Made by a program: the position numbers and the translations under genes. Of a stretch of DNA of 53,621 bases, positions 10,839 through 31,865 are shown piece by piece. Origin of the DNA: a virus; the IMG/VR virus record IMGVR_UViG_3300036468_000001; one strand, 5' to 3'. Each line of letters begins with the position of its first letter. Positions within the stretch are counted from its first letter, which is position 1. Under the pieces are notes generated by a model. The model was not told the origin of the DNA. It made no database searches and worked only from the letters and a program-made list of their open reading frames with translations.

Positions 10839-11416
10839 CGTACCCGATCGAGGGTGGTTTCCCGAACTGGATGGCGCCGTTCACTGATGCGAATGGCCGT
10901 CTCACACGGGATGGCATGAACCTGCTTCAGCTTCTGTTCAGCCGCACAGGAGCACTCACGGGGCAGTTTCTGGAGGCCGGGACATTGCCTCCGGTTCCCG
11001 TATTTTCGGATTCTTCGGATTTGGACTCCGACGAGTTTGGTTCGATTCCTGGGCCACCCGGTCCTGTTGGATCGATCGGGCCACAGGGGCCGTTTGGCCC
11101 GGTTGTAATCATTGATGTTCCGGATGTCGATGAACCAATGATGCGTGGTCCGCTGGCCCCGGGCGGATGGTACGACGAGAAGGGCAGCGGCGGGACGTAT
11201 GGCTTTGCCTCTGGTGTCGACTTCGTCGGTGGCACAACCACCTCTCTCACGCTTTCCCAGCCATATGGCGCGCAGGCAAATCTGATCGTTGTGTTCGACG
11301 CCTTGTGGCAAGGCGCGGATCAGTTCTCACTCAGCGGCAAGACGCTGACTTTCACATCGGCGATTCCCGTTGGCGTACAGAAAGTGTACGTCAAGGGCTT
11401 TCTGATGCCTCAGTAA
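10835..11416 (+). CDS. tail protein with a short collagen-like segment and a domain shared with the tailspike
   Basis: GPPGPVGSIGPQGPFGP gives five G-X-Y triplets. The C-terminal ~75 aa are paralogous to tailspike residues ~107-185. Confidence 0.65.
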   Translation: MTYPIEGGFPNWMAPFTDANGRLTRDGMNLLQLLFSRTGALTGQFLEAGTLPPVPVFSDSSDLDSDEFGSIPGPPGPVGSIGPQGPFGPVVIIDVPDVDEPMMRGPLAPGGWYDEKGSGGTYGFASGVDFVGGTTTSLTLSQPYGAQANLIVVFDALWQGADQFSLSGKTLTFTSAIPVGVQKVYVKGFLMPQ

Positions 11417-11425: not shown

Positions 11426-11797
11426 ATGGCTGCAAACAAGATACTGCGCTTTGGCCCGGTAGCTCTCGGCGCATCCGCAGCAAACCTCATCAATCCGCCG
11501 ACCCTGACTGGTGGCGCGGGATTGGCCGGAACTAATACGAACACCTACGTGATTGTTCGTCACATCCGGATCGTCAACAAGTCGGCGACTGCGGCGACGG
11601 TTTCCCTATACATCGGCGCAACCGGTGCATCTGCCGCGGGCACCGAGTTCGCATTCAACGGTGCGAGCGTTCAGGCCAACAGTTACCTCGACTGGTATGG
11701 CCTTGTACGTCTGGATATTGCGGACTTTCTCACTGGTCTCGCATCGGTGGCGACGACATTGACTTTTCAGGCCGAAGGCGAGATCGGGGTCGTCTGA
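11426..11797 (+). CDS. hypothetical tail-module protein
   Basis: 123-aa ORF tightly packed between tail genes. Confidence 0.6.
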   Translation: MAANKILRFGPVALGASAANLINPPTLTGGAGLAGTNTNTYVIVRHIRIVNKSATAATVSLYIGATGASAAGTEFAFNGASVQANSYLDWYGLVRLDIADFLTGLASVATTLTFQAEGEIGVV

Positions 11798-12381
11798 TGA
11801 AATTCTTCACTCTCATGAAGAAAGCCATCGACGTTCGGCCGCTGGTGAGCGCGCTCGATGCGCATCCGGAACTGTGGGACGCCAACGGGTTCCGCAAGAC
11901 CGGCAACGGTACGCCGCACGGCGGCATGTCCGATATCTGGGTTCGTTACAACGACGTGGCGCCGTATGCCGCTCGAGGCGATTACGCAGGCTTCAATGAT
12001 GCGCACGTGCCGATCTGGTATCCCGCCTACGACGTGCTTCAGCAGACGCTCGATCCGCTGATTTTCCCGCTGATGGCGGAAGTCCGCGGCGAGATGCTTG
12101 GCGGCGTGCTGATCACGCGCATCCCGGCAGGGCAAGGCATTGCGCCCCACGTGGATGAAGGCTGGCACGTCAACTACTACGACAAGTTCTATCTCTCGCT
12201 GCGCAGCGCGCCGGGAGCGACGTTCCATTGCGGTGACGAAGTGATCAATCCCGAGCCGGGCGATCTCTATCACTTCGACAACCATCTCGAGCACTGGGTG
12301 AAGAACGAGAGCGCCGGCGACCGCATGACGCTGATCGTCTGCATCCGCACGAACCGCGCGCGGTGGTCGCCATGTCAGTAG
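11797..12381 (+). CDS. aspartyl/asparaginyl beta-hydroxylase-like 2OG-Fe(II) oxygenase (cupin fold)
   Basis: An HxD (APHVDEG) and a distal His (LEHWVKN) are spaced as in 2OG oxygenases. The overall sequence resembles the Asp/Arg hydroxylase family. Confidence 0.55.
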   Translation: MKFFTLMKKAIDVRPLVSALDAHPELWDANGFRKTGNGTPHGGMSDIWVRYNDVAPYAARGDYAGFNDAHVPIWYPAYDVLQQTLDPLIFPLMAEVRGEMLGGVLITRIPAGQGIAPHVDEGWHVNYYDKFYLSLRSAPGATFHCGDEVINPEPGDLYHFDNHLEHWVKNESAGDRMTLIVCIRTNRARWSPCQ

Positions 12382-12437: not shown

Positions 12438-12746
12438 ATGATCGACCTGAAGATCAAGCACCACTTCTCTGGCAGGGAATACGCGAAGGAAATGACTCTG
12501 CCGGCCGGTCATTACGCGGAGACGCACGAACACGTCTACGACCATATTTCGATTCTTGCCGTCGGCGAGGTTCTGGTCGATATCGACGGTTCCGTTACCC
12601 GCCATGTTGGACCGACGGCAATTGTGATTCCGGCGAACAGAAAACATCGCATCGAAGCAATCACCGATTCAGTGTGGTTTTGCGTGCATGCGACCGATGA
12701 AACCGACCCGGAAAAGGTCGATGACGTGCTGATCAAGGGGAACTGA
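12438..12746 (+). CDS. cupin domain protein
   Basis: Cupin motifs HEHVYDHISILAVG and IPANRKHRIEA. An alternative start at 12363/12372 is possible. Confidence 0.6.
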   Translation: MIDLKIKHHFSGREYAKEMTLPAGHYAETHEHVYDHISILAVGEVLVDIDGSVTRHVGPTAIVIPANRKHRIEAITDSVWFCVHATDETDPEKVDDVLIKGN

Positions 12747-12747
12747 A

Positions 12748-13509
12748 ATGCCATGGGGATTCGCTGGAGCGGCGATTGGTGCCGTAGGCGCAATTGGCAG
12801 TGCCGTGATCGGATCGAATGCATCCAGCAGCGCCGCCAATACGCAAGCCGATGCGTCGAACAATGCAACGCAGGCGCAACTGCAGATGTTCAACACGGTG
12901 CAGGGCAACCTGCAACCGTACATGTCGGGCGGAACGAACGCGCTGGCAGGGTTGAACAGTTTCATCAACGGACAGGGCCAGTCGCAACCGTTTTCCTTCA
13001 ACTACAACCCGGCGAGCGATCCGGAATACAACTTCCTGCTGTCTCAAGGCTCGAACGCGATCACAAGTCAGGCGTCCGCGCTGGGCGGCATGAAATCCGG
13101 TGCGACGCTGAAGGCGTTGTCGGACTATGGCCAGAATACGGCTCTCCAGTCGTACCAGAGCGAGTTCAACAATGCGCTGAACACGTACGGCGCCAACCAG
13201 ACGAACCTCTCCAACATCTTCAGCCGGCTGTACAACACGGCGTCGCTCGGTGAGAACGCTGCTGCTGGTGTGGGCAATGCTGCGATCAGCACGGGCCAGT
13301 CGATCGGAAGCAACATGATCGGCGCCGGCAATGCACAAGCAGCCGGGACTGTCGGATCAGCGAATGCGCTTTCTGGCGGGCTAACGAGCCTCAGCAGCCT
13401 GCTGAACAATCAGTCGTTCCTGAATTCCTTCGGCGGGGGCTCGTCTGGTTTCAATCCCGCTTACCAGTCGTCGTATTCCGGCTTCGACAATCCTTCCAAC
13501 TACGGTTGA
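12748..13509 (+). CDS. internal virion / ejection protein (low-complexity Gly/Ser/Asn/Ala/Gln-rich)
   Basis: Composition and position correspond to the P22 gp14/gp7 slot. Confidence 0.6.
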   Translation: MPWGFAGAAIGAVGAIGSAVIGSNASSSAANTQADASNNATQAQLQMFNTVQGNLQPYMSGGTNALAGLNSFINGQGQSQPFSFNYNPASDPEYNFLLSQGSNAITSQASALGGMKSGATLKALSDYGQNTALQSYQSEFNNALNTYGANQTNLSNIFSRLYNTASLGENAAAGVGNAAISTGQSIGSNMIGAGNAQAAGTVGSANALSGGLTSLSSLLNNQSFLNSFGGGSSGFNPAYQSSYSGFDNPSNYG

Positions 13510-13515
13510 TCGAAA

Positions 13516-14985
13516 ATGGCACAGGTAGACGCAAACATTCCGCTCGCCGTTGCAAATCCCGCCGAGCTTCAGCAGATCGCGTACAGGAACCAGCTAACCC
13601 AGCTTCAGCTTCAACAGGGCCAGCAGGAACAGCAGCAGAACAACGCGCTGCTGGGCATCCTGAAGCAGCCGGGCGCGGTTGATGACAGCGGCATGCCCAC
13701 GCAGGCCACGCTCGGCCGGATCATGCAGGTCAATCCTGACGCGGGCTTCAAGATCCAGAACCAGCTCGCGACGATTCAGGAGAACAAGCAACGCGCGATC
13801 ACGAACCAGATCAACCAGAGGCTGCTGGGCATGAACATCGGCGACAAGGCACACGATCGCCTGGTGGACATTGCGACGTCGTCGCAACAGCGCTATGACG
13901 ATCTCGTGGCGAACGGCACGCCCAAAGACGAAGCCGCGCGCATTGTCGGGAAAGAACGCAACGAATCGATCACCGACGCGCAGGAGGCTGGCTTGCTTAC
14001 TCCGGATCAGGCGCGGCCGATGCAGAACCCTTTCAACCCGGAGATGAACAAGGCGTTCATCACGGGCTCGGCACAGTACAAGCGCGTACTTGACGAGCAG
14101 CGGCAGGCGCGCATGGAGCAGACTAGCGAGCGCCGCGCGGACCTCGCTGAACACCGGGAAGAGCGGGCCGAAAACATGCCTGTCTCCGATATCGGGAAGC
14201 TGTCGTACGACTATCAGCGCGGCGCGATCAGCAAGCAGGACTACGAGGCCGCGGTACTGAACAAGACGAAGGGATTCAATCCCGAGGATGTGGATTCGGT
14301 GGTCGACCAGATGGGCAAATACGACATGCCGCCGCTGACCGGTCAGGCGCTCCGCACGCCGTGGGGGCAGGCCGTCATGGCGGGCCTCGCCAAGAAGTAT
14401 CCCGACTATGACGCGAAAGAGTACAAAACCCGTCAGGCGGCTATTGGCCAGTTCGAGTACGGCAAGAAGGGCGACACCGTGCGCTCGCTCAGCGTCTCGC
14501 TGGATCACCTGGACACGCTGACGGAAGCTGGCAAGGCGCTGAAGAACGGCAACGTGCAGGGATTCAACAAACTCGCGCAGACGCTTGCCGAACAGACCGG
14601 CTCTGCTGTGCCGACCAACTTCGAAGCCGCCAAGAGCATTGTCGCTGACGAAGTCGTGAAGGGCATTCTGGGGTCTGGCGGCGGCGTGGGCGATCGCGAG
14701 AAAGCACAGGCGATCTTTGACAAGGTCAAGAGCCCCGAGCAGTTGGCTGGCGCCGTCGATCAGGTCAAGAAGCTGCTGCGCGGTCAACTGACAGGGCTCG
14801 AGCGCCAGTACAAGCAATCGACCGGCCGCGATGACTTCGACCGCTTTTTGTCTCCCTCTGCGCGCGGGCTGGAGCAGGGTGGTGGCAACGGGCCGAAGAA
14901 GATCGCGTCGAAGGCCGACTATGACGCTCTGCCTTCCGGCGCGGAGTTCATTGCGCCCGACGGTTCGCACCGGAGGAAGCCGTAA
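13516..14985 (+). CDS. internal virion / ejection protein
   Basis: 489 aa with a Gln-rich N-terminus. It sits in the P22 gp20-like position. Confidence 0.6.
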   Translation: MAQVDANIPLAVANPAELQQIAYRNQLTQLQLQQGQQEQQQNNALLGILKQPGAVDDSGMPTQATLGRIMQVNPDAGFKIQNQLATIQENKQRAITNQINQRLLGMNIGDKAHDRLVDIATSSQQRYDDLVANGTPKDEAARIVGKERNESITDAQEAGLLTPDQARPMQNPFNPEMNKAFITGSAQYKRVLDEQRQARMEQTSERRADLAEHREERAENMPVSDIGKLSYDYQRGAISKQDYEAAVLNKTKGFNPEDVDSVVDQMGKYDMPPLTGQALRTPWGQAVMAGLAKKYPDYDAKEYKTRQAAIGQFEYGKKGDTVRSLSVSLDHLDTLTEAGKALKNGNVQGFNKLAQTLAEQTGSAVPTNFEAAKSIVADEVVKGILGSGGGVGDREKAQAIFDKVKSPEQLAGAVDQVKKLLRGQLTGLERQYKQSTGRDDFDRFLSPSARGLEQGGGNGPKKIASKADYDALPSGAEFIAPDGSHRRKP

Positions 14986-17819
14986 TGGCTAACTGGTGGG
15001 ATGACGCGCCCGTTATCGACGCGCCACAGACCGCGACAAGCGGATCGCCACTCGACCGCGCGTTGAAGTCCGAAGGTGTGACCGGAAAGCTGGCGGACGT
15101 TGCGCGCAGCATCTACCAGCAGGAATCGGGAGCCGGTCGCGATACGGCGACGTCGGATGCCGGCGCCACCGGCGGCATGCAGATGAAGCCCGATACGTTC
15201 AAGCGCTTCGCCGACAAAGGCTGGTCGATCGAGAACCCCGACCAGAATGCACGCGCTGCGGTGCGCTTCATCAAGTCTCTTTCCGACAAGACCGGCGGCG
15301 ATCCGAAACTGATTTCCGTCGGCTACTACGGCGGTGAAGGCGCGATTCCGAAGGCCAAGGCGGGCATTGCTGTACGCGATCCGCGCAATCCGAACGCGCC
15401 GACCACGCTTCAGTACGCCGACCAGGTGACGTCCCGCATTCCAAAGACGGGATCCAGGACGGAATCGAAAGACGAGGGGAACTGGTGGGCAGCGGCGCCG
15501 GTGGTGTCTGCGGACACGGCCGCACCAGACAATGCACAGCCAGAACCTACGCGCGCGCAGCAGGACATGCGCGGACTCGGACTCGGCGCTCGTTCAGTGG
15601 CGGAGGGCGCCGCAAGCCCGCTGACGTTCCTCGGCGACACGCTGAACAAGGGCGTCAATCTCGGCATTCGTGGCGTGAATTCGTTGGCGGGTACGAACAT
15701 CCCTCAACTGGGCATGCCGTCTCAGGCCGTAAATAACGCGCTGACAGGGATCGGGCTCCCTCAACCGGCCACGCCGACTGAGCGCGTTCTGAGTGACATC
15801 CAGAGTGGTGCGGCCGGCGCTGGGGCGGGTGCTGGATTTACGGGAGCCCTGTCTGGCGTTGCCGCAAATCCGGTCGTTCGAAACGCTCTTACGCAACTTT
15901 CGGAGCAACCGGGTCTACAGATGGGTCTGGGAGCCGCGAGCGGTGGATCGGCAGGCGTCGCGCGAGAAGCAGGCTTGGGTCCTACCGGACAGCTTCTGGC
16001 AAGCTTTGCGGGCGGTTTGACGCCGCTGGGCATCAAGACGCTTGCTCAGTCCGCCGACCGCGCGACACGCAACGCCGCGAAGATGCTGCAAACAGCTATG
16101 GAACACCACTCGCCAGAAGAATGGAATCAGGCACGTGCGCTTCTTTCGGAATCTCAGAAGCAAGGTGTTCCGCTCATGGGCCCAGAGGCGTTTCCCGGAG
16201 GGTCTCAGGTTCAGCAACTTGGCTCGGATGTGGCCGCGTCGCCGGCGAGTGGCAACAAGATTCGCGAGTTCGTTCGTCCCCGCCCTGAACAGGTAGAGAC
16301 TGCGGGGAAGAACGCGCTTGCCAGAATCGGCGACAACGTGGGCGGCCAGGAAGCGGCAAATCAGGCGCAGGAAACTGCCGACAAGGTAATCCGCGACGCG
16401 CAAAAGTACCGCACGGAAGCCGCCGGCCCTTACTATCAAGGCCAGCGCGCGAGCGATACCGAAGCATTGGACTTGGGCGACCAAATCAGCGAACTTCCAT
16501 CCAAAATCGTTGCCCTCAGCCAGTCCAGGTCGAGTGCTGTTCAGGCCGCCGGAAAACTGCATGCCTTTACCAACGAACAGATTAATGCGGCTAATCGCAC
16601 TATTCGTCGCAACCTGGGATTGGCGGGCGATGTAAAAGCCGGTCGTAACCTCGATCGCGCAGAGGAAGGAAAGGCAGGCACCTATGCCGCAGTGAATCGG
16701 GGCAAGGAGATCTCGGCTCAAATCGACGCGTCGCAGCGTCAACTGGATAGCGCGGCGGATCGTTTGGCCGAGAAGGATCTGCCAGCGATCCGTAGCAAGG
16801 TGCAATCGTTCGTTTCCAATCTGGATCAACAGATTCGGCTTGCCGGCCCAGACGAGGCGAAGATCCTCAAGCAGTACCGCGACCAGATTGCGCCGAACGG
16901 CCAACCGCTTGTTCTCCCGTCCCAACTGGAGAGCATCTACAAGGCAAATCGCAACAAGATCAATCTTGGTCTCAACCCGACAGCAGAAGAAAAGACTGCC
17001 GCAGGTGTGCTCAAGGGGAGCGTGTCGGATCTGGACAACCTTATCAAGGACGTATCGCCGTCGATCCGAAACGGGCGACTCATTTACGAGCAACTGTCTC
17101 GGGAGGTGGTGGACCCGCTATTGAAAGGTCCGATCGGGAAACTCGCGGGAAAGGGTGCCGATGCTCAGAAAGAGGCGACGTACTCGCGGGCCATGTCGGA
17201 AATGCAAAGCGACACTGCCAATCCGAAGCGAATCAAGACCATCGCCGACGAGTTCAATAAGGTTGACAAGACAGCATTTCCGAATCTCACGCGCGCATAC
17301 CTCGAAAACAAACTGAATGCCTCTTTGAAGGATCTGCAGGGGCGTCGCAATCCCGGAGCTGGTGCGAACTTCCGCAACGCTCTCGCCGGTACGCCTCAAG
17401 ACGCCGCCAACCTTCGCGCCATGATCGAGAAATCAGCCGAAGCGCAGGGCCAAGATCCGCAGAAGAGCTATCAGGGATTCCGCAAGCTTCTCGATGTTCT
17501 GGACGCCACAGGACGAGTTCCAGGGATGGGTAGCCAGACACAGTCGCGCATGGAGAACGCCGCTACCGCGCGCGAGTCACTCGTCGCTGGCGCGCTCGAG
17601 ACGAAGTTTTCGTCGCCCGGCGGCCAAATCGCAAAGTTTCTGAGGAACAAGGCGTACGGCGGAACCTACAAGAAGCTCGCCGACGTTTTCACCGACCCGG
17701 ATTCGGTCAGGAAGATGCAGGAGCTGGTGAACCTGAAGCCGACGTCTCTGCAAGCGCAGAGGCTGGTTTTGTCGCTGCTGACCTCACCGGCACAGCGCGC
17801 CGGCCAGGATGACCAGTGA
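14985..17819 (+). CDS. ejection protein with an N-terminal soluble lytic transglycosylase domain
   Basis: The SLT signature QQESGAGRDTATSDAGATGGMQMKPDTF sits within a 944-aa protein. Confidence 0.8.
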   Translation: MANWWDDAPVIDAPQTATSGSPLDRALKSEGVTGKLADVARSIYQQESGAGRDTATSDAGATGGMQMKPDTFKRFADKGWSIENPDQNARAAVRFIKSLSDKTGGDPKLISVGYYGGEGAIPKAKAGIAVRDPRNPNAPTTLQYADQVTSRIPKTGSRTESKDEGNWWAAAPVVSADTAAPDNAQPEPTRAQQDMRGLGLGARSVAEGAASPLTFLGDTLNKGVNLGIRGVNSLAGTNIPQLGMPSQAVNNALTGIGLPQPATPTERVLSDIQSGAAGAGAGAGFTGALSGVAANPVVRNALTQLSEQPGLQMGLGAASGGSAGVAREAGLGPTGQLLASFAGGLTPLGIKTLAQSADRATRNAAKMLQTAMEHHSPEEWNQARALLSESQKQGVPLMGPEAFPGGSQVQQLGSDVAASPASGNKIREFVRPRPEQVETAGKNALARIGDNVGGQEAANQAQETADKVIRDAQKYRTEAAGPYYQGQRASDTEALDLGDQISELPSKIVALSQSRSSAVQAAGKLHAFTNEQINAANRTIRRNLGLAGDVKAGRNLDRAEEGKAGTYAAVNRGKEISAQIDASQRQLDSAADRLAEKDLPAIRSKVQSFVSNLDQQIRLAGPDEAKILKQYRDQIAPNGQPLVLPSQLESIYKANRNKINLGLNPTAEEKTAAGVLKGSVSDLDNLIKDVSPSIRNGRLIYEQLSREVVDPLLKGPIGKLAGKGADAQKEATYSRAMSEMQSDTANPKRIKTIADEFNKVDKTAFPNLTRAYLENKLNASLKDLQGRRNPGAGANFRNALAGTPQDAANLRAMIEKSAEAQGQDPQKSYQGFRKLLDVLDATGRVPGMGSQTQSRMENAATARESLVAGALETKFSSPGGQIAKFLRNKAYGGTYKKLADVFTDPDSVRKMQELVNLKPTSLQAQRLVLSLLTSPAQRAGQDDQ

Positions 17820-17917: not shown

Positions 17918-18082
17918 ATGAAGAAAGCCAATACATTGAGGGCGTCGAAACAGACTATCGCGAAAGTCAGCTCGAAACAACCGAAACCGGCGACATCGGC
18001 GACCAAGGGCACGTTCGGGGCCAAGATCCGCGGCATCCAGAAGAAGGCCAAGCCCAAGGCCGGAAAGGTCACCTCGTTTTAA
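17918..18082 (+). CDS. small lysine-rich protein
   Basis: GGAGAG RBS. GC3 is clearly higher in this frame than in the overlapping 145-aa ORF. 54 aa and very basic. Confidence 0.45.
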   Translation: MKKANTLRASKQTIAKVSSKQPKPATSATKGTFGAKIRGIQKKAKPKAGKVTSF

Positions 18083-18093
18083 GGATTTGCACC

Positions 18094-18246
18094 ATGCCAC
18101 TTTCGAAAGGTAAATCCAAGGCAGCAATCGGCAAGAACATCAAGACCGAGATGAAGGCCGGGAAACCCCAAAAGCAGGCGGTGGCTATCGCGCTTAATAC
18201 TGCGCGCAAGGCTGGCGCCAAGATCCCGAAGAGAGGAAAGAAATGA
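18094..18246 (+). CDS. small lysine-rich protein
   Basis: AAGGA RBS, 50 aa: MPLSKGKSKAAIGKNIKTEMKAGKPQKQAVAIALNTARKAGAK. Confidence 0.5.
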   Translation: MPLSKGKSKAAIGKNIKTEMKAGKPQKQAVAIALNTARKAGAKIPKRGKK

Positions 18247-18614
18247 AGATCGTCATTGAGAGTATCCCTTCCGTGGCCCAGCGCTACGACACATGGGGAG
18301 ACTGGTGGTTTGATCCCGATGGCACGCTGCAGATTCGCGTCAGCGATGACGTGGCGGAACTGCCTACCGAAAATCACCAGTTCCTGATTGCGCTCCACGA
18401 ACTCGTTGAGGTCATGGCGTGCAAGGCACACGGCGTTACCCAGCAACAGGTCGATGAATTTGATTTTGCCAATCAGGAGCACTGCAACGAAAACGACCTC
18501 GAGCCGGGCGATCTGCCCGATGCGCCGTACCGGAAGGAACACCGGTTCGCGATGCTTATCGAGCACCTGATGGCGCGCGAACTGGGTATCGAGGGTTACG
18601 GGGAGGTTCGGTGA
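18243..18614 (+). CDS. hypothetical protein
   Basis: ATGA overlap upstream and GTGA overlap downstream. 123 aa and acidic. Confidence 0.6.
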   Translation: MKIVIESIPSVAQRYDTWGDWWFDPDGTLQIRVSDDVAELPTENHQFLIALHELVEVMACKAHGVTQQQVDEFDFANQEHCNENDLEPGDLPDAPYRKEHRFAMLIEHLMARELGIEGYGEVR

Positions 18615-19951
18615 GGGTTCTCATCGTCGATTTTGACCGCACCGGTCTGGATATGGCATACCGCGCCGCAGAGGGCGGGCATGACGTGCAAATCTGGTCG
18701 CCGCCAAACGCCGACGGCTCACCAGTCATGGCCGGCCACGGATTTCCCGGAATCAAACGCGTCGAAAAGTGGCAAGCCGCCATGTTGTGGGTCGGTAAGA
18801 CGGGACTCGTCGTGAACATGTTCAACGACAAGGAAATCACCCGCGCGATGGATCAATGGCGCGCGCGCGGATACCGCGTGTTCGGACCGTCTGCAAAGAG
18901 TGCCGCGATGGAACACGACCGCGGTGCCGGCATGAAGCTGTTTGAGAAGTTCGGTTTCGAGGTGCCGGAGTACCAGATTTTCCCGACGCTGGAGGCGACG
19001 CTCGCTTACGCGTGGAAATGCCAGGACCCGATGGTTCTGAAGCCAATGGGGGACAACGATGATAAGTCCCTTACCTACGTCGCGCACGACCCGGCCGATC
19101 TGGTGTCGTTCCTTGAAATGAAGAAGACGCACGGAGTGCAGATCAAGGGCCAGCTGATGCTCCAGCAGAAGGTCGACATGATCATGGAGTTGGGCGTGTC
19201 GGCCTGGATGAGCCCTAACGGCTTCTCGCGCGCGCACAATTGCTCAATCGAGTACAAAAAGTTGATGAATGGCGATTACGGGCCTAGCACAGGCGAAATG
19301 GGCGATCTGTCGCGGTACTACACCGACACGTCGGAGAGCATCCTGTCGGACCATCTGATGCGTTTCGAAGAGACGTTGCTCGAAATGGGTCACATCGGAG
19401 ATTTCGCGATCGGCGGCGGTGTGACGACAAAGGGCAAGTATGTGCCGTTCGAGGTGTCCGCCCGTTTCGGTTATCCCGAAATCTTCGCGTTTCTCCACTG
19501 CCATCGGTGCGATCCGATCGAATGGATGAGTTCAATGATCGACGGCGAAGACACGCTCGAAGTAGACGAGCGGCCGGCGGTGTGCGTTGTGATGGCCAAG
19601 CCGCCTTTCCCGCGCTCGAGCGACAGGCCGGCGCAGGACGTCGGCGCAGTGATTACCGGAATTGAGGAAGTCTGGCACCACGTTTCGCCGGTCGAAATGA
19701 TGCTGGAGAAGGGGCCGTGCATGAAAGGTGGCAAGGTCGACACGGATCTCGTCTACAAAACCACCGGGAATTACATCTGCACGGTTACCGCGCAAGGCTC
19801 CGATGTGCATGATGCGATCGAGGAAGTCTACGCGGCGGCCGGCCGGATCAAGTACCAGGACCGGATGCTGAGAACGGACATTGCCAAGGATCTCGAAAAG
19901 AAGATTCCCAAGGCCAAGGCGCTCGGCTTCAGAGAATTGCCTGACTGGTAG
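18611..19951 (+). CDS. ATP-grasp enzyme, PurD (glycinamide ribonucleotide synthetase)-like
   Basis: GTG start after GGGAGG. FGPSAKSAAMEHDRGAGMKLFEKFG, YKKLMNGDYGPSTGEMG and FEVSARFGYPE match the PurD blocks FGP...LE.SK, DHKR..DGD.GPNTGGMG and EFN.RFGDPE. Confidence 0.6.
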   Translation: MRVLIVDFDRTGLDMAYRAAEGGHDVQIWSPPNADGSPVMAGHGFPGIKRVEKWQAAMLWVGKTGLVVNMFNDKEITRAMDQWRARGYRVFGPSAKSAAMEHDRGAGMKLFEKFGFEVPEYQIFPTLEATLAYAWKCQDPMVLKPMGDNDDKSLTYVAHDPADLVSFLEMKKTHGVQIKGQLMLQQKVDMIMELGVSAWMSPNGFSRAHNCSIEYKKLMNGDYGPSTGEMGDLSRYYTDTSESILSDHLMRFEETLLEMGHIGDFAIGGGVTTKGKYVPFEVSARFGYPEIFAFLHCHRCDPIEWMSSMIDGEDTLEVDERPAVCVVMAKPPFPRSSDRPAQDVGAVITGIEEVWHHVSPVEMMLEKGPCMKGGKVDTDLVYKTTGNYICTVTAQGSDVHDAIEEVYAAAGRIKYQDRMLRTDIAKDLEKKIPKAKALGFRELPDW

Positions 19952-19974
19952 GACACAACAACCAATCGCATCCA

Positions 19975-19998
19975 GCCCGCTTTGAGCGGGCTTTTTTA
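19975..19998 (+). terminator. rho-independent terminator
   Basis: Hairpin GCCCGC-TTTGA-GCGGGC followed by TTTTTTATT. Confidence 0.7.
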
Positions 19999-21612: not shown

Positions 21613-22077
21613 ATGAAACGTATGCTGCTTGCGGCAGGCATTGCCGCGTGTCTCGCTTTTTCTGGCTGCGCATCGACCGGCTCACCGAAAATTCCAACGC
21701 CCCAGCAACTGGTGAGCGACTTCTGCCCGACGGTCAATGCCGACCTCAAACTTCTGGCCGCGTCACCGCTGCTCAATGCTTCGCAACAGCAACTGTTGAA
21801 TGGCGTGCCCGGTGACGCGACGCATCCCGGCATCATCGCGATCAACAGTGCGGTTTGCGCGGCCGGCGGTCAGATCAATGTGACCGATCTGCAAACGCTC
21901 AACAACACGGCGTTTCCTGCGCTCATCGAGCTGGTCGGGGCGCTCCCGATGCTTCCGAATCAGCCAGCGATTCTGCTCGGCCTGACACTTGCTCAGCCGA
22001 TCCTGAATCAGATCGTCGCGCAAGTTATGCCGGCGGCTCCTGCGGCCGCTAGTGCACCGGCCGCCGCGAGCCAGTAA
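21613..22077 (+). CDS. lipoprotein
   Basis: Signal peptide with lipobox LAFSGC. GAAGGA RBS. Confidence 0.65.
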   Translation: MKRMLLAAGIAACLAFSGCASTGSPKIPTPQQLVSDFCPTVNADLKLLAASPLLNASQQQLLNGVPGDATHPGIIAINSAVCAAGGQINVTDLQTLNNTAFPALIELVGALPMLPNQPAILLGLTLAQPILNQIVAQVMPAAPAAASAPAAASQ

Positions 22078-22676
22078 TGACGCCGCATGACTTCGCGCTG
22101 CTGGCGCAGGAAGCCTATTCCGTGGCGCCAGACATTGGCAAAGCGGATAGCGCTTCTCGCGCCATCGTACGTACGACTGCGGACGGTCTGTGCGTTGCCT
22201 TCCCGGGATCGGACAACGCGGACTGCTGGGGTGCGGACTTCGACATTGTGCCGGTAGCCGTGAAAGGGGTCGGCGAGGTTCATCAAGGCTTCTGGAACGC
22301 CTGGCAGGCTATCGCACCACAAGTGGTGACCGCAATCGGCGATCAGCCTGTGACGCTTGTTGGCCATTCTCTAGGCGCCGCGATCGCGATTCTCGCTGCG
22401 GCATCACTGGTGATGGCGGGAAAGCCGCCGGCGGCTGTCTATGGCTTCGAGCCTCCGCGCGTGAGTCCCGGAATCGGTGTGCGGTCAGCGCTCTCCAAGG
22501 TGCCAGTTCATCTGTATAAGAACGGTCTCGACATCGTGCCGGATCTGCCGCCTAACTGGCAGCACGCCGCAACCCTGATTCATATCGGCACGCCACAACT
22601 GCCTTTTCCCAACACGCTGGATCACCAGATTGAAAGGGTGATTCTCGCTCTGTCTGCGCAGTCTCCGCCAGCTTGA
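22077..22676 (+). CDS. class-3 lipase / alpha-beta hydrolase
   Basis: Nucleophile elbow VTLVGHSLGAAIA. TAATGA coupling to the lipoprotein gene. Confidence 0.7.
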   Translation: MTPHDFALLAQEAYSVAPDIGKADSASRAIVRTTADGLCVAFPGSDNADCWGADFDIVPVAVKGVGEVHQGFWNAWQAIAPQVVTAIGDQPVTLVGHSLGAAIAILAAASLVMAGKPPAAVYGFEPPRVSPGIGVRSALSKVPVHLYKNGLDIVPDLPPNWQHAATLIHIGTPQLPFPNTLDHQIERVILALSAQSPPA

Positions 22677-22691: not shown

Positions 22692-22717
22692 AAGCCGCCT
22701 TCGGGCGGCTTTTTTAT
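22692..22717 (+). terminator. rho-independent terminator
   Basis: Hairpin AAGCCGCC-TTCG-GGCGGCTT followed by TTTTATT. Confidence 0.7.
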
Positions 22718-22731
22718 TGCCTGGACCAAAC

Positions 22732-25056
22732 ATGACCACCGTTACTCTCGCGCCTCTGGTTAAGCAGCAGTTCAACCAGAATGGGATTCCGCTGGCCGGC
22801 GGCAAGCTGTTCGTCTACAACGCCGGAACGACAACGAAGGCACTCACTTACACGGACGCCACAGGCGACACGCCGAACACCAACCCGATCATTCTCGACG
22901 CCAACGGCCAGTGCGGCGTCTGGCTTTTGCCAACCCTCGCGTACAAATTCATTCTGTCGCCGGCGACCGATACCGATCCGCCGACGAACCCATTCTGGAC
23001 GGTCGACAACGTAACGACCGTCCAGGGCGTCGCTGTCGGAGACATGACGGACGAAAAAGGCAGCGGCGGCACCTACGGATTCGCCGCAAACGTCGATTTC
23101 ACACCCGGCACCACGACGCAACTGACGCTATCCCAGAATTACGGCAGCTCGGGCAATTTGTGGGTGACCTTCGACGGCACGGAGCAGGGCGCAGATACGT
23201 TTTCTCTGGGCGGCACGAACAATACCGTTCTGACGTTCAATGCCCCGATTCCTGTGGGGGTCCAGAAGGTCTACGTCAAAGGCGGCACTGCGCTTACGAT
23301 CGGCACGCCTGGCGCGGGGACCGTCGGCGACGCCCAAATCAACCAGAGCAGCAATCTGTACATCCACGCCTATTCCTTCGTCGGTTCAAAGGATGTCGGC
23401 GCGCTGGGCAACGGAACGACCGATGACCATACAGCCGTTCAGAACGCCGGATCGCTGGCGTCGAGTTCTGGAAAGTTGCTACTCGTGACGCCCGGCACTT
23501 ACCTTATCGGCTCGAGCATCGCATTCGCGGGGCCGGTCGAGTTCATGCCTGGGGCGCAGTTTGTCGTAAAGAGCGGGGCTGTCGTTACCTTCAACGGACA
23601 ACTCACCGGCCCACTGACCAACATCTTCAGCGTGCAAACCGGGGGCAACATTGTTGTCAATCCGGGCACCACGACGGAAGGTTACCCAGAGTGGTTTGGC
23701 GCCCAACCGGGAAATTCCTCGTTCGACTGCGCACCGTATATCAACGCGAGCCTTTCCGTTTTCTCGGTTACGCGTCTTCAGAATACGGTCTACTACACAG
23801 CCACATCGGTCCTTATGGGGCAGAACGGGCAGTCGCTTGTCGGATCAAATCCAAATCTGACCCAAGGCGCTTTTAATTCCTCAGTCATTCAGTGCCAAAG
23901 CGCCGCGGTTACGATTTTGCAGATCGGGCCAAATGTCAATCCTTACCCCGCGTCATTGCAGACGTCGATGGCGGTTCACAACGTTGCGTTCTCTCGGGGT
24001 ACTGCACCAGACATTTCCCAATCCGCGACGGGCATCAAGATTCAATACTGTTCAGGCGTATTGATGAAATGCGTCAGCGTAATTGACTCTGTTGAGTGCT
24101 TCCATCAACTCGGCTCAGCGTATGTGCGTTACGAGCATTGCAACGCGTTCAAGTTGACAGTCGGCATCAACGGGACAGATGCGTTCCACGGATTCAATTT
24201 AGACGGCAGTGCTTATATTGGTTTCTCTGACAGCGGAAATCCTTCGGTCCTGATGTACGACTGTCAGGTAAGCAATCTGCGCGACGCAGACACCACCTGG
24301 GCGCCGGGTAGTGACTATCAGGGTATGTTTGTCCATGGGCAGTACGGCTGGTCGGATGTCTGGATTTTTGATCTGGAAACGAATGGTGTCGGCACAGGGA
24401 TAAACCTCGTTGGGACGGTGAACAATACAACGACGGCGGACTCGTTGAATAAACGCTTCTACGTCTATAACCCGATTCTCGATACGTGCGTTCTTGCGGG
24501 TATTTCGTTCACGAATATCAGTTCTTATGGCGATATTCATGTAATCGGTGGCTATGCCAATTGCAGCAACGCCCAACCTAATCCGGTCGGAATCTCGTAC
24601 TCGTCGTCGAACGGGAACGTCCAGATTTCGCAGTTCATGGTCGAGTGCAATAAGAACCACAGCACGATTGGTGTCGTGTCGTACGCGTCATCAAAAATGG
24701 TTCATCGCGACTGTTCATATCTCGAAGCTTTCGTGACACCCATCCAGCTTAATTCGACTTCACATTTCACATTCATGGATCAAGTGACGAATGATTCCAG
24801 CGCGTCTTCCAATGTGGCGTTCCTCGTGAACAACTGTAACCGGGGCTACATGAACATTGCACTTTCTGGTTACCCAGGCGCCTACGGAGGCGGGATCGAC
24901 CTTGCCGATACGTCGATTCAGTACTGTGAATTCGCATGTTCGCGCATGGACCCTGGCGCAATCACCGGCGGCGTCAAGGTCGTCTACAACGGCACGCCGA
25001 TCACCACGGCCGGCACTTTCGGAACCGGCAACCTCGCTTCTGGGATTATGAACTGA
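22732..25056 (+). CDS. tailspike with a pectate-lyase-like beta-helix domain
   Basis: SKDVGALGNGTTDDHTAVQNAG resembles the Pectate_lyase_3 signature. The N-terminus NGIPLAGGKLFVYNAGT is of tail-fibre type. GC is lower in the C-terminal half. Confidence 0.8.
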   Translation: MTTVTLAPLVKQQFNQNGIPLAGGKLFVYNAGTTTKALTYTDATGDTPNTNPIILDANGQCGVWLLPTLAYKFILSPATDTDPPTNPFWTVDNVTTVQGVAVGDMTDEKGSGGTYGFAANVDFTPGTTTQLTLSQNYGSSGNLWVTFDGTEQGADTFSLGGTNNTVLTFNAPIPVGVQKVYVKGGTALTIGTPGAGTVGDAQINQSSNLYIHAYSFVGSKDVGALGNGTTDDHTAVQNAGSLASSSGKLLLVTPGTYLIGSSIAFAGPVEFMPGAQFVVKSGAVVTFNGQLTGPLTNIFSVQTGGNIVVNPGTTTEGYPEWFGAQPGNSSFDCAPYINASLSVFSVTRLQNTVYYTATSVLMGQNGQSLVGSNPNLTQGAFNSSVIQCQSAAVTILQIGPNVNPYPASLQTSMAVHNVAFSRGTAPDISQSATGIKIQYCSGVLMKCVSVIDSVECFHQLGSAYVRYEHCNAFKLTVGINGTDAFHGFNLDGSAYIGFSDSGNPSVLMYDCQVSNLRDADTTWAPGSDYQGMFVHGQYGWSDVWIFDLETNGVGTGINLVGTVNNTTTADSLNKRFYVYNPILDTCVLAGISFTNISSYGDIHVIGGYANCSNAQPNPVGISYSSSNGNVQISQFMVECNKNHSTIGVVSYASSKMVHRDCSYLEAFVTPIQLNSTSHFTFMDQVTNDSSASSNVAFLVNNCNRGYMNIALSGYPGAYGGGIDLADTSIQYCEFACSRMDPGAITGGVKVVYNGTPITTAGTFGTGNLASGIMN

Positions 25057-25057
25057 C

Positions 25058-26236
25058 ATGAAAAAGCTAATCGTATTTCTCGCTTCGCTGTACATCGCCG
25101 CAACGTATGGCGCGACTACCGTCCCTATTCAATTGCTCAATTCGAGCGGGTCGACTTCGGGGCAGGCGATTGTTTCAACCGGCGCTTCCAGCGCGCCAGC
25201 GTGGGGAAACGTCGCAGCGACCACGCTAGCCGCGCAGGCCGCGAATACGGTAGTGGCGAACGTGACCGGCTCGTCTGCATCGCCGACGGCTTTTGTCATG
25301 CCAAGTTGCAGTGCGACTTCGAATGCACTCACATATACCTCGGGCGCAGGTTTCACCTGCAACACCACGCTTAACGCGACCACGCTTCTCAATAGTTCCT
25401 GGGCCGCGCCCGGCACTATTGGCAGTGCCACACCGAGCAGCGGTGCATTCACGACGCTCAGTGCGAGCAGTACGGTCAGTGGTAGCGGGTTCAGCACCTA
25501 TCTGGCTTCGCCGCCGGCGATTGGCGGTACTGCCGCGGCTCCGGGCACATTCACAACTGTCACCGGCACGTCAGCCGTTATTTCGAATGGTTTGACCAGT
25601 GGGAATTCGATATCCGTATCGTCCACGTCAAACACGAGTAACGGCGCATCGATCCTGTTGACGGGCAATGGAGCGACTACCCCGAACAAATCAATTCGGG
25701 CGTTTAACGGAGCGTTCCAGATCGTGAATTCCGCGTCATCGGCCGTGATTGCATCGGTCGACGACTCCGGAGACCTAGTGACGACGGGATACATCTCGCC
25801 GTCTCAAACTGGCGGCATCGTCGGAACGACGACTAACAACAGCGCCAATGCCGGAAGTGTCGGCGAGTACGTATCCAGCACTATCGCTGCCGGTTCGGCT
25901 GTTACTTTGACGAATGGGACGGCTGCAAACGTAACCTCTATTTCGCTCACTGCGGGCGATTGGGATGTGTTCGGAACTGTTTGCTTTACGCTGGGCAGCG
26001 GCAATACGACGTATGCCGTCATCGGTTCAATTAGCCTTACGAGCGCCACCTACAACTTTCTGCCGGGCTTTTATTTGCCCGGGGTTCCTACAGGCACAAC
26101 TGTAGAGTGCGCCGCGGCAGGAATGATCCGCGAATCGTTTTCGTCCACGACACCGGTATATCTGGTAGCGGGGGCGAGTTGGGCTTCGGGAAGTGCGGCT
26201 GCTTACGGTTTTATCAGTGCGCGCCGTCGTCGCTAG
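25058..26236 (+). CDS. tail fibre-like Ser/Thr/Gly/Ala-rich protein with a signal-peptide-like N-terminus
   Basis: Starts 1 nt after the tailspike stop. N-terminus MKKLIVFLASLYIAATYG. Repetitive beta-rich composition. Confidence 0.6.
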   Translation: MKKLIVFLASLYIAATYGATTVPIQLLNSSGSTSGQAIVSTGASSAPAWGNVAATTLAAQAANTVVANVTGSSASPTAFVMPSCSATSNALTYTSGAGFTCNTTLNATTLLNSSWAAPGTIGSATPSSGAFTTLSASSTVSGSGFSTYLASPPAIGGTAAAPGTFTTVTGTSAVISNGLTSGNSISVSSTSNTSNGASILLTGNGATTPNKSIRAFNGAFQIVNSASSAVIASVDDSGDLVTTGYISPSQTGGIVGTTTNNSANAGSVGEYVSSTIAAGSAVTLTNGTAANVTSISLTAGDWDVFGTVCFTLGSGNTTYAVIGSISLTSATYNFLPGFYLPGVPTGTTVECAAAGMIRESFSSTTPVYLVAGASWASGSAAAYGFISARRRR

Positions 26237-26402
26237 ACAAACCCTGCGAATTTTTCCAGGGACGAAATAACGTCGACCAGGGTTTCCCGAACGCCAAGAG
26301 TCGGGATAATCACGTCTATGCGGACAGGATTGGTCGGGTTGGTATCTTTCATTTTAGAAAGTCTTCGTAAGACAATTGGCCTAAGCGACGCAGTATATCG
26401 CG

Positions 26403-26738
26403 TCACCACACCGTCATCCGTTTCAAAACGGCGATCAGGACAGGCGCTTCCCGACGTTCATCGAAGTCGAACAGATCCTGGTTTGGCTCGACATAAACTG
26501 CCGCCACAAAACGCTCACCAGAATTCAAAACCATCGTGTAAGTGTTTGATTTTATGAGTTCAGATATGTGCATTTCGCTGGGCTGGGAATGCCCGCCAAT
26601 CCCAGCCACCTCATTGTTTTCTATGAGAAATTTCCGATCTTGTTGGGTAATCACTTTCTGTTGATAACTTTTCCACCGAACCCTTTGCAGACTGGGTTTT
26701 GAGTGTGGTGATCCAAAATCGGTCCAAAACTGATCCAA
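26403..26738 (-). CDS. hypothetical protein in the AT-rich segment (moron candidate; may instead be non-coding attP DNA)
   Basis: A 111-codon ORF stays open in AT-rich DNA, but it has only a TTG start and no SD sequence. Confidence 0.35.
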   Translation of the reverse strand: MDQFWTDFGSPHSKPSLQRVRWKSYQQKVITQQDRKFLIENNEVAGIGGHSQPSEMHISELIKSNTYTMVLNSGERFVAAVYVEPNQDLFDFDERREAPVLIAVLKRMTVW

Positions 26739-26740
26739 AA
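26710..26740. repeat. three direct repeats G(A/G)TCCAAAA at 11-bp phasing (candidate integrase arm-type sites, attP P' arm)
   Basis: GATCCAAAA at 26710, GGTCCAAAA at 26721 and GATCCAAAA at 26732, directly after the int stop codon. Confidence 0.4.
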
Positions 26741-26741
26741 T

Positions 26742-27869
26742 TCATGCACTTCGTGCCTTGATTTCGGTCCACTCTTTGCCCCGTGAATCGCGGTACAGAG
26801 CCGTCATCTCGGCTGATTTGTGCCCCAGAAGCGCCTGGGCGAACTCGGCGCCGTACTCGTCAGCGTAGAGGCGGGCGGCTAGAGACCGGATCTCATGAAA
26901 CGTCGGCGGAGTCTTGCCCGGATCGACCGCAATCTTTGCCTGGTCACGGAAAGTTGCAAAAACGTCTGAAAAGCTGACCACATGAGGGCTTCCGCCTGGT
27001 CTTGCTGTGCCAACATGCCGCAGGTGATGGATCACGTGCTTGGAGACGATGTTGTCGCGGCATTCCCGTATTACATCGCCGATCGTCAGGCCATCCAGCG
27101 CCTTCAGGCCGACGGTCAGAGGGATTTTCAATCTCGTCCGGCCCTGACTCTTTTTCTGTTCGACGTAGAGGAACCCGTCCTTCACGTGGTCGAACAGCAT
27201 GCTTTTTACATCCTCCCGGCGCTGCGCCGTGACCAGTGCCAACATGAAGGCGCGGGCGGCCCAACCCATCAGCGGATCCTTTCTGGCCTCCGCAACGACC
27301 TTCCAGAAGTCCTCGAGGGTCAATCTTGAACGCAGGACATCTCCTTTCGTTCTCTTTACGGACGAAACCGGATTCTTTCCGGCCTCAATCAAACCCTCTC
27401 CAATCGCCTCGTTGAAGAGGTCGACCAGACGGCTGCGCATCTGCACGGCGTAGGTGTCACTCACCTCCGCGGCGAGCTTCTTCAGAAAGTCCCTGATATC
27501 CCTCGGCGTCACGACATTGACGCGCTGCGCCGCGAAAGGCGCGCGTTTGATGGCCTTCAGGTAGCTGCTGACGGTCGAGCGGGAACCTTCGTTTTCCGTC
27601 CTCTTGGCATAGATAGCCTCGTACTCATCACACCACTGGGAGACGGTCTTCATGCCGCCGTCGATCTTATTAATGAGCGCAACTGCTCCCTTGCGGCGCT
27701 CCAGCTCGGCGTTCGCGGCGCGAGCCTCTGATGAAGCGACCTTGAAGTCGCGCCCCAGACCATACGTCGCCTTGGTTTCCGGGTGCCGGAACCAGTAATA
27801 GCCCTTGGAGTTCTTATACAAGTTGTCGGGCCAGTTACGGCGCGCCGCGATTCGTCGTCTAGCTGCCAT
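26742..27869 (-). CDS. int: tyrosine integrase, lambda Int-like
   Basis: HEIRSLAARLY...LLGHKSAEMTALYRDSRGKEWTEI closely parallels the lambda Int C-terminus. AAGGA RBS. Confidence 0.9.
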   Translation of the reverse strand: MAARRRIAARRNWPDNLYKNSKGYYWFRHPETKATYGLGRDFKVASSEARAANAELERRKGAVALINKIDGGMKTVSQWCDEYEAIYAKRTENEGSRSTVSSYLKAIKRAPFAAQRVNVVTPRDIRDFLKKLAAEVSDTYAVQMRSRLVDLFNEAIGEGLIEAGKNPVSSVKRTKGDVLRSRLTLEDFWKVVAEARKDPLMGWAARAFMLALVTAQRREDVKSMLFDHVKDGFLYVEQKKSQGRTRLKIPLTVGLKALDGLTIGDVIRECRDNIVSKHVIHHLRHVGTARPGGSPHVVSFSDVFATFRDQAKIAVDPGKTPPTFHEIRSLAARLYADEYGAEFAQALLGHKSAEMTALYRDSRGKEWTEIKARSA

Positions 27870-31383: not shown

Positions 31384-31865
31384 GCTGCCCACTCCATGAG
31401 TTGAGTGTCATACCCGAGCATCAGCGGATGCTTCGGGTCACCTCCCTTTGTGAAGCCGAATATCTTCACTGGCTTGCCGGCGCCGAGAATGCGATGCGCC
31501 AGCGTGTCGAGATGTGGCCGCAGCGCCGCGGGCAACTTCGTGCGATCTCCCCAGCACGGGACAAGCAGGTCCGCGTCCGCGATGATCTGGCCAAGATGCA
31601 TGTCGTTGAATGGGCCGACCGGATCGAGAACTCGCGAGAGCTCGCGAACGTCGCGCGCACGGTATGCGAACGGGTTGCCGGCGACGTACTTGCGCGCGCC
31701 GAGCAAACGCCCGAAGCCGCGCCACTTCATGTCGGTCTGGTCCGGGATGATCGAATCCGCCCACGACGGATTAACGCCAAAGAACGCGACCACGATTCCG
31801 ACAAGCTGCAACTCGCGCTCGAGGCGGTACCGGTATGTGCCACATTCGCTGATGATCGCGGTCAT
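31380..31865 (-). CDS. DUF1643 family protein
   Basis: CGTYRYRLER...FFGVNPSWAD...GNPFAYRA...PCWGD...GDPKHPL matches the DUF1643 pattern as I recall it. ATGA overlap with the RT stop. Confidence 0.65.
   Translation of the reverse strand: MTAIISECGTYRYRLERELQLVGIVVAFFGVNPSWADSIIPDQTDMKWRGFGRLLGARKYVAGNPFAYRARDVRELSRVLDPVGPFNDMHLGQIIADADLLVPCWGDRTKLPAALRPHLDTLAHRILGAGKPVKIFGFTKGGDPKHPLMLGYDTQLMEWAA

Follow-up and report, generated by a model that had tools for sequence, protein, structure and literature searches.

The window analysed here, the whole 53,621-nucleotide (nt) stretch of viral DNA held as IMG/VR record IMGVR_UViG_3300036468_000001, carries at positions 17918–19951 four coupled open reading frames (ORFs), all on the plus strand, encoding proteins of 54, 50, 123 and 446 amino acids (aa). 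The last of these proteins, an ATP-grasp ligase resembling phosphoribosylamine–glycine ligase (PurD), is the main subject of this study. A first-pass annotation made from the bare sequence had described these four tightly linked ORFs, and all are present as described; the same four genes are called on independent metagenome contigs with an identical ligase. The first ORF (17918–18082) starts with ATG, has a GGAGAG ribosome-binding site 4 nt upstream and encodes a lysine (Lys)-rich protein of 54 aa (isoelectric point, pI, 12.0; 24% Lys). The second (18094–18246) starts 11 nt after the first and encodes a Lys-rich protein of 50 aa (pI 11.45; 26% Lys). Its stop codon is overlapped (ATGA) by the ATG of the gene for an acidic protein of 123 aa (18243–18614; pI 4.46), the stop codon of which is in turn overlapped (GTGA) by the GTG start codon of the ligase gene (18611–19951; 446 aa, pI 5.45), with a GGGGAGG upstream. 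This GTG start is supported by the homologues, which keep an MRVL N-terminus. After the last stop codon, the plus strand has an intrinsic-terminator-like hairpin with a T-run (19974–19992, or to 20002 with TTTTTTATT; 8-bp stem with six G-C pairs), and the terminator previously proposed to close the unit is thus present. The placing of these genes at the end of the virion operon can be kept only in part: they do lie at the end of a transcription unit, but the tailspike gene (22717–25056) is still to come, downstream of the lysis cassette.

Profile and fold of the 446-aa protein

The first-pass annotation likened the 446-aa protein to PurD, and profile and structure comparisons bear this out. 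The purD model TIGR00877 matches it with 70.3 bits (E 1.3e-19), against a cutoff of 288. GARS_C is the sole GARS domain of Pfam to pass its threshold (38.1 vs. 34.8), GARS_A falling below it (24.4 vs. 27) and GARS_N giving no match. All the PDB sequence matches are to PurD (E 9e-18 or weaker), and most of these alignments begin at residue 76. The three blocks originally matched to PurD are found at residues 91–115, 215–231 and 280–290, and the reported divergence of the N-terminal region is seen in the missing GARS_N match and the late start of the alignments, although this domain still keeps a Rossmann-like fold.

An AlphaFold model of the protein, built from 35 homologues (predicted local distance difference test score, pLDDT, 93), has the four-domain N-B-A-C fold and is nearest to solved PurD structures. 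PurD (EC 6.3.4.13; PDB 2yw2, 1gso, 2qk4) occupies Foldseek ranks 1–15 (E 9e-29 to 1e-23; template modelling score, TM, 0.66–0.78), its best match being 11 orders of magnitude ahead of the next group of structures; this group, at about 1e-17, is made up of PurK, RizA, PurT and biotin carboxylase. RimK-type enzymes, which the annotation had offered as a comparison, give no match to the protein in Pfam or NCBIfam and none among the top 50 fold matches. With PurD first and the PurK/RizA group following only at about 1e-17, the ligase is PurD-derived and not RimK-like.

Active-site residues

Residue states were tabulated over an alignment of 122 viral-clade sequences, 72 cellular sequences and Salmonella PurD, the roles of the residues being taken from human, E. 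coli and Geobacillus PurD (PMC2978367; PMC8880213). The residues kept are the ATP/metal set (E101, R104, K144, K152, Q185, E193, K216, E281) and R285, the Arg that holds the carboxylate or acyl-phosphate. Invariant in the family are E101, R104, K144, K152, Q185, K216, T227, G228, E281 and R285; E193 is E in 118 of the 122 viral-clade sequences and D in the other four. The A-loop residues G224, P225, T227 and G228 are also kept. The ligase therefore has the active site of an ATP-grasp enzyme save for the second metal ligand, the Asn of the PurD E-x-N motif, which has become Thr or Ser (position 283). At the level of motifs, it shares with PurD the ATP-binding Lys and Glu, the A-loop GPxTGxMG, the E-x-x-x-R containing the acyl-phosphate Arg, and the C-terminal RxDIG.

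The PurD residues that bind phosphoribosylamine (PRA) and the amino group of glycine, in contrast, are replaced. In the GGREHA loop of human GARS, Arg13 and Glu14 bind the phosphate and ribose of PRA (PMC2978367). The counterpart of this loop in the 446-aa protein is F-D-R-T-G-L-D-M-A, and across the family the Arg position holds V, C, M, T or I and the Glu position Gly. The Asp and Glu of the PROSITE motif PS00184 (R-[LF]-G-D-P-E) bind the glycine amino group; the position of this Asp (288) is W, Y or F in 121 of the 122 viral-clade sequences, and the next Glu is not conserved. The C-domain Arg (human Arg385), a proposed PRA phosphate site, is replaced at position 388, where 114 of the 122 have Tyr. 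Other changes add charge: GGMG has become GEMG with an invariant Glu (E229), E214 is also invariant, the DHKR of PurD is E(H/Y)KK, and the N-domain loop has new family-specific acidic residues (D7, D/E9 and D14). On this alignment, the arginines that bind phosphate have disappeared from the active-site region, and carboxylate and aromatic side chains have been added.

LAGLIDADG inteins are present in three homologues (P0020, P0027 and P0094), in every case between the GPN and the TGE(M/Q)G of the catalytic A-loop. Inteins are usually placed in the catalytic motifs of functional enzymes, and their placement in this invariant loop suggests selection for activity.

The first-pass annotation saw no obvious need of a phage for a single purine-pathway step, and the replaced substrate residues justify this doubt. 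No other pur gene was found in the Pfam annotations of the matching contig or among the window proteins scanned (the larger ORFs of the early region together with some of the virion module), and no base-hypermodification gene among these same proteins, which argues against both a purine role and a role in DNA modification. It is extremely unlikely that the gene is a genuine purD, acting as an auxiliary metabolic gene to boost purine synthesis in the host. The source databases do name the ligase phosphoribosylamine--glycine ligase, viral purD has been reported as an auxiliary metabolic gene (PMC12647753, PMC11097641), and canonical PurD does occur on some phage-labelled records. However, the score of 70 bits is far from the cutoff, GGREHA, the RFGDPE Asp and the C-domain Arg are replaced across the family, the gene is located in a late structural operon without any pur-gene context, and archaeal paralogues with the same substitutions were rejected as GARS by Brown et al. 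(PMC3261824). Related genes also occur in DPANN and Candidate Phyla Radiation (CPR) genomes, which again speaks against a purine role. To our knowledge, these two groups are generally without de novo purine synthesis.

The viral purD genes of the virome surveys carry the same automatic annotation as the ligase and were read as purine biosynthesis genes (PMC12647753, PMC11097641); this reading is contradicted by the residues in the case of the ligase family, the surveys being compared here by annotation and not by sequence. Three unverified human-faecal "Bacteriophage sp." scaffolds (L172, L173 and L174; MT835525, MT838306 and MT837288) have a canonical PurD (GGREHA, NTGGMG, NARFGDPE) and may be bacterial. 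Real and look-alike purD genes thus share one label in phage collections.

The viral clade and its cellular relatives

A word-indexed search returned 337 homologues, reaching down to about 38% identity and mostly on contigs of 40–60 kb; the ligase is 88–33% identical to more than 300 metagenome proteins. In IMG/VR, at least 540 contigs with a relative were confirmed by a pattern scan. The viral clade is marked by the motifs IDxDxxGLD, GxGF, EHKKLMxGDxGPxTGEMG, E-F-T/S-A-R-x-G-W/Y-P and PPFP; the 446-aa protein has these motifs and groups with the IMG/VR homologues in the tree. Cellular genomes hold few such genes. A scan of 185,579 species genomes, in which a single-protein query gave nothing and an alignment-based query gave matches, found only about nine viral-clade genes, in genomes or metagenome-assembled genomes of Rhodanobacteraceae, Aquabacterium, Paraburkholderia sp. 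C35 (L090), Acidocella, Saccharibacteria and Elusimicrobia. Several of these copies lie on large chromosomal contigs and are probably prophages. A relative of about 30% identity on a 45-kb Saccharibacteria (CPR) contig (L092) groups with the viral clade in the tree. Among 50,697 phage records, blastn and tblastn found no close cultured relative, the only matches being one of 28% on an uncultured genome and canonical PurDs.

The other 71 matches of the species-genome scan (25–30% identity) come from cellular paralogues. That loci L095–L166 might hold true PurD was ruled out by residue statistics, as the paralogues have the same substitutions as the viral clade; they score 84–123 bits on the purD model, below its cutoff. 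The family to which they belong has at least 6957 clusters, with 65–70% identity among Bdellovibrio, Planctomycetes and Patescibacteria, and its members are named "phosphoribosylamine--glycine ligase" or "GARS C domain-containing protein" in databases. It includes the haloarchaeal rrnAC0307 and Hlac_1553 (PMC3261824) and members from Thaumarchaeota, DPANN, Bdellovibrio, Planctomycetes and CPR. These proteins share with the viral ligases E214, E229, T283, the aromatic residue at 288 and, in most cases, a residue other than Arg (Tyr or another) at 388. They differ in having Ser or Thr at position 7 of the N domain (Asp in the viral clade) and FDD in place of the viral NxxN, and they are encoded by stand-alone chromosomal genes without a conserved neighbourhood. 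In a neighbour-joining tree, the viral clade (110 viral and eight genome-derived sequences) is monophyletic, the cellular clade is likewise monophyletic and sister to it, and canonical PurD lies outside both; mean identity is 28% between viral and cellular sequences and 23% between viral sequences and canonical PurD.

Judged from sequence and modelled structure, the 446-aa protein is thus an ATP-grasp enzyme descended from PurD, and not a PurD. A comparable conclusion was reached for the cellular paralogues by Brown et al. in 2011, who considered two haloarchaeal members to be "not actual" GARS because the Asp of the PROSITE motif was missing, the N-terminus was divergent and Mg sites were missing (PMC3261824). 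A literature search for a characterised PurD-like enzyme of this kind returned this paper only, and no function assigned to the family.

The acidic 123-aa partner protein

The recurrent partner of the ligase is the acidic 123-aa protein and not the basic ORFs, a point missed in the earlier annotation. A homologue of this protein adjoins the ligase gene (within 1 kb) in 40 of the 86 informative viral loci (about 45%); it abuts or overlaps the ligase gene upstream in 27 cases, lies within 1 kb upstream in nine and is immediately downstream in four. Three Micrarchaeota genomes also have a homologue, placed convergently beside a ligase of the cellular clade (L098, 11961–12362; L111, 11277–11729; L143, 11914–12345), and those of L111 face each other tail to tail across a gap of 8 nt. 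A further locus (L170, 4001–5712) has a homologue followed by a 410-aa protein with no Pfam match, which hhalign relates to the ligase family with a probability of 85%; the two may represent a much more distant offshoot of this gene pair. The recurrence of the two genes together across clades supports a functional link between them. One homologue of the 123-aa protein was found among early genes, and no gene for an ATP-grasp protein lies less than 4 kb from it.

The family of the 123-aa protein comprises 1759 representatives at 50% identity, with pI values of 4.4–5.3. R14, G19, D20, H52, E53, E56, D74, G89, Y96, H100 and E107 are invariant and C60, E87, P88 and D90 nearly so, giving a signature of candidate metal-binding residues: H52-E53-x-x-E56(-C60), D71/D74, E87-P-G-D90, Y96, H100 and E107. 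The protein has no family match in Pfam, PHROGs or NCBIfam, and profile searches of the PDB failed or were weak. Its AlphaFold model (pLDDT 96.9) consists of three strands followed by three helices, and in Foldseek searches of the PDB and BFVD its weak matches (E 0.006–0.6, TM ≤ 0.5) were to SprT/Spartan, IrrE and lethal factor. They point consistently to the zincins (IrrE/ImmA of family M78, SprT/Spartan), with which the protein shares a three-stranded sheet followed by a helix bearing H-E-x-x-(E), and a further His and Glu (H100, E107) on a later helix; unlike the zincins, it has HExxE rather than HExxH. Weak Pfam matches of single family members (E up to 10) include Peptidase_M78 (3 of 44, E 0.056 or weaker) and Fe_dep_repr_C, the metal-binding domain of iron-dependent repressors. 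A MazG-like interpretation of its ExxE...DxxD residues was rejected, as no all-alpha nucleoside triphosphate pyrophosphatase structure matched the high-confidence model. The 123-aa protein is read here as a small protein with a metal-binding residue signature, which could act either as a mini-hydrolase or as an acidic carrier or substrate.

A comparison can be made with LysX–LysW and RimK–S6, in which ATP-grasp ligases act on a protein carboxylate and, in the first case, LysW is a small acidic carrier. In LysX–LysW, as here, the ATP-grasp gene lies beside that of a small, very acidic protein with metal-ligand residues, and by this analogy the translational coupling of the 123-aa gene to the ligase gene suggests a complex. 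The analogy is one of logic only: neither the ligase nor the 123-aa protein is related in sequence or fold to LysX, RimK or LysW, and the 123-aa protein, unlike LysW, is without a zinc ribbon and an EDWGE tail and is absent from half of the loci.

The Lys-rich ORFs

Both Lys-rich ORFs look like real genes, but they are clade-restricted and not conserved partners of the ligase. The 54-aa ORF is called as a gene on three independent contigs and has no family match in Pfam, PHROGs or NCBIfam. The 50-aa protein belongs to DUF6496/phrog_2423 (PF20106, 24.2 bits vs. a gathering threshold of 24; phrog_2423, E 3.9e-18 over residues 1–43), and its gene resembles, at the DNA level, one annotated as hypothetical in the ligase-free Ralstonia phage RSB1. 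Homologues of the 54-aa protein occur in only five of about 88 ligase-carrying loci, and those of the 50-aa protein in only nine, so the two proteins cannot be a general substrate; they may have a clade-specific role. A small Lys-rich ORF of any family is found upstream of the ligase gene in 11 of 82 loci, and the density of such ORFs is 0.112 per kb there against 0.049 elsewhere in the same loci (about 2.3-fold). This enrichment is driven by two clades, and therefore reflects few independent events. In another clade, an unrelated small Lys-rich protein (MPSKSKAQNRMMHAVAHDKK...) is encoded directly upstream of the ligase (L037, L040, L042 and L056).

The first-pass annotation had speculated that the enzyme modifies the two adjacent Lys-rich proteins, by RimK-like tailing or otherwise, or else phage DNA. 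An acidic acceptor site would suit Lys amines, the basic ORFs belong to the same coupled unit in the clade of the source phage, and the unrelated Lys-rich ORF and the upstream enrichment point in the same direction. These proposals nonetheless seem very unlikely to be correct. Homologues of the two ORFs are missing beside the 73% identical ligase of L010 and in most other relatives, the 50-aa family also occurs in phages without a ligase, the enrichment comes from two clades only, RimK-type enzymes are outside the top 50 fold matches and, as regards DNA, the window proteins scanned include no hypermodification or aminated-base gene.

An optional cassette between the ejection and tail-fibre genes

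The source genome is that of a circularly permuted temperate podovirus of about 53.6 kb, with a small terminase gene at 52749–53294, a large terminase gene split by the ends of the window, an integrase, an excisionase and a P22-type coat protein about 40% identical to those of the nearest cultured phages. Upstream of the four ORFs, on the plus strand, are three ejection-protein genes (12748–17819) encoding proteins of 253 aa (phrog_598, DNA ejection), 489 aa and 944 aa (SLT domain). Downstream, the lysis cassette and a lipase gene separate the ligase gene from the tailspike gene. The lipase gene, which comes after the lysis genes and before the tailspike gene, encodes a class-3 lipase or alpha/beta hydrolase (22077–22676, plus strand; PF01764, 55.9 bits) and is present in only five of the fetched loci. 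Given the gene overlaps and the terminator, the ligase cassette would be read with the late genes.

The conservation of the gene neighbourhood, which had been proposed as a check, was examined in related phages. The surroundings of the ligase gene are kept even in relatives in which the ligase itself is only 33–45% identical. The order is conserved: head-closure gene (Phage_stabilise/Hc3), ejection genes (phrog_598, the family of about 489 aa and the large SLT-bearing proteins), the 123-aa gene if present, the ligase gene and a tail-fibre gene. The ligase itself is optional. In a survey of loci picked by the head-closure protein, 27 were informative (at least 9.5 kb downstream, or a ligase match), and the ligase was present in eight of these and absent from 19; the tail-fibre gene follows the ejection genes directly in at least 16 of the 19 loci without a ligase. 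The 489-aa ejection protein was dropped as a marker of the lineage, as it is too divergent (13–34% identity). The ligase is thus an optional late-operon cassette at the ejection/tail-fibre junction in a podovirus lineage that has a P22-type coat.

This position raises the possibility that the ligase is packaged in the virion and ejected, to act on a host target at the start of infection, perhaps against host defences. Its gene comes right after the ejection genes, and the cassette is often translationally coupled to the last of these in relatives (L005, L183); a patchy, optional distribution is also typical of counter-defence cargo. P22-type phages have a region of accessory genes between the ejection-protein genes and the tailspike gene. 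Packaging of the enzyme is nevertheless rather unlikely, as the ligase matches no PADLOC defence model and nothing in the sequence indicates that it is packaged. This explanation concerns delivery and is compatible with that preferred below.

Two other observations were made in the surroundings of the ligase. RtcB and RLIG1 genes lie near two ligase homologues, the RtcB ORF of L005 falling into no shared ORF cluster. In the window, the virion module contains a gene for an Asp/Asn beta-hydroxylase-like cupin (11797–12381, plus strand; PF05118, 37.8 bits), adjoined by a small cupin-looking ORF of 102 aa (12438–12746, plus strand). Homologues of these two were found in 27 and 19, respectively, of all the fetched loci, including duplicates of the source phage and one cellular locus. 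A link between the hydroxylase-like gene and the ligase was considered and not adopted, as the former occurs with and without the latter.

Proposed function of the ligase

The ligase is probably best explained as a carboxylate–amine ligase descended from PurD and neofunctionalised, forming part of an accessory late cassette, and not as a purine gene. Such an enzyme would still activate a carboxylate as an acyl-phosphate and then join it to an amine. With two substrate-binding Arg lost (that of the acyl-phosphate being kept) and acidic and aromatic residues gained, the most likely acceptor is an amine that has a positive charge and no phosphate; it might be a protein Lys or N-terminal amine, or a polyamine-like small molecule. 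The carboxylate donor would not be free glycine bound in the manner of PurD. The 123-aa partner might be a mini-hydrolase trimming or preparing the substrate; alternatively, it might resemble LysW, as an acidic protein used as carrier or substrate. The cassette would then confer an accessory benefit, through modification of the virion or of the host, rather than provide a virion building block or a purine step.

Several points weigh against this explanation. The cationic nature of the amine is deduced solely from residue substitutions in the alignment. With the metal Asn changed to Thr or Ser, the chemistry could differ from classical ATP-grasp ligation, and missing Mg sites were also noted in the haloarchaeal paralogues by Brown et al. 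(PMC3261824). The cellular homologues (71 loci) show no conserved neighbourhood from which a function could be transferred. About half of the loci, among them those of close relatives (L007–L009, with ligases 72–87% identical), have no 123-aa partner, which is therefore neither an obligatory subunit nor the sole substrate; all its fold matches are non-significant, the best having an E-value of 0.006. Finally, the proposed co-transcription with the late genes comes from the gene overlaps and the terminator.

Within this explanation, the choice of target can be argued in two directions. The partner protein and the position in the operon lean towards a protein target. In the fullest version of this idea, the ligase and the 123-aa protein would form a two-component protein-modification system of phages and some archaea, in which the ligase couples a group bearing an amine to a carboxylate, either on the 123-aa protein or on one of the virion or ejection proteins, or cross-links these proteins. 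The 123-aa protein would serve as a LysW-like carrier or a trimming hydrolase. This version is tentative and, taken as a whole, unlikely.

Leaning the other way are the preference of the PurD group for small molecules and two cellular neighbourhoods related to amines and Lys-lipids. The product might thus be a small-molecule amide, made from a carboxylate and a polyamine, a diamine or an amino-acid-derived amine, with no protein modified, and serving to condense DNA in the capsid, to take over the host or as a signal; this is a possible but doubtful alternative. PurD, PurK, PurT and RizA all use small molecules, the ligase retains the four domains of PurD, the closing C domain among them, and acidic residues have been gained in its active-site region. 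One cellular homologue (L255, 1773–7482), in an apparent operon, follows genes for an amine oxidase, a class-III aminotransferase and a major facilitator superfamily transporter, with an ArgZ-like gene adjoining, and another (L254, 954–7296) follows a gene for an MprF-like lysyl-phosphatidylglycerol synthase flanked by two VirJ genes, and these neighbours may hint at amine-related substrates. They are, however, single cases among cellular loci that otherwise have no conserved context, the phage encodes no other enzyme of a small-molecule pathway, and a small, acidic, recurrent partner suits a protein-directed reaction at least equally well.

Significance

The superfamily, its chemistry and the flagging of a cellular paralogue as non-GARS in 2011 were already known. 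The new elements are a large viral clade mis-annotated as purD, its status as a cassette of the ejection/tail-fibre junction, and the partner family. The label of purine auxiliary gene attached to purD is very probably wrong for this ligase family, and hence for hundreds of viral contigs. The ligase ties phages to a very large family of cellular PurD paralogues, flagged in 2011, and the phage cassette provides a compact handle on this family, as it supplies a recurrent small partner. A carrier prophage is available in a strain-named, apparently cultured genome, that of Paraburkholderia sp. C35. If a virion or host protein is indeed modified, this would be a new enzyme class among phage late functions. 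If the ligase and the 123-aa protein do work as a two-component system, no ATP-grasp system for post-translational modification would have been described before from the virion module of a phage, and a function could be assigned to a PurD-paralogue family with thousands of members.

Other features of the window

The window contains several other features of interest. A diversity-generating retroelement lies on the minus strand at 31862–34983. It consists of a reverse transcriptase gene (31862–33289; RVT_1), an Avd-like gene of 123 aa (33238–33609, minus strand), a template repeat (32962–33101) and two variable repeats (33618–33757 and 34268–34407), which lie at the 3' ends of two paralogous genes (33626–34405 and 34276–34983). 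The copies of the repeat differ mainly at template adenines, and the first of the target genes (33626–34405) has a weak, sub-threshold match to Lcl_C/DUF1566. A protein of 140 aa encoded at 49094–49516 (plus strand) has a Tad2-like (Thoeris anti-defence 2) domain (PF11195, 51.8 bits).

In the virion module, the gene after the head-closure gene (10835–11416, plus strand) encodes a protein of 193 aa with a collagen-like stretch (GPPGPVGSIGPQGPFGP). The C-terminal 80 or so residues of this protein (DEKGSGGTYGFA...VQKVYVKG) recur in the 779-aa tailspike (plus strand), in a segment close to its N-terminus. The G+C content falls to 0.51–0.52 at 24001–27000, against about 0.59 elsewhere, over a stretch containing the end of the tailspike gene and an ORF of 392 aa (25058–26236) with a signal-peptide-like N-terminus; this stretch may be a recently acquired host-range or conversion module.

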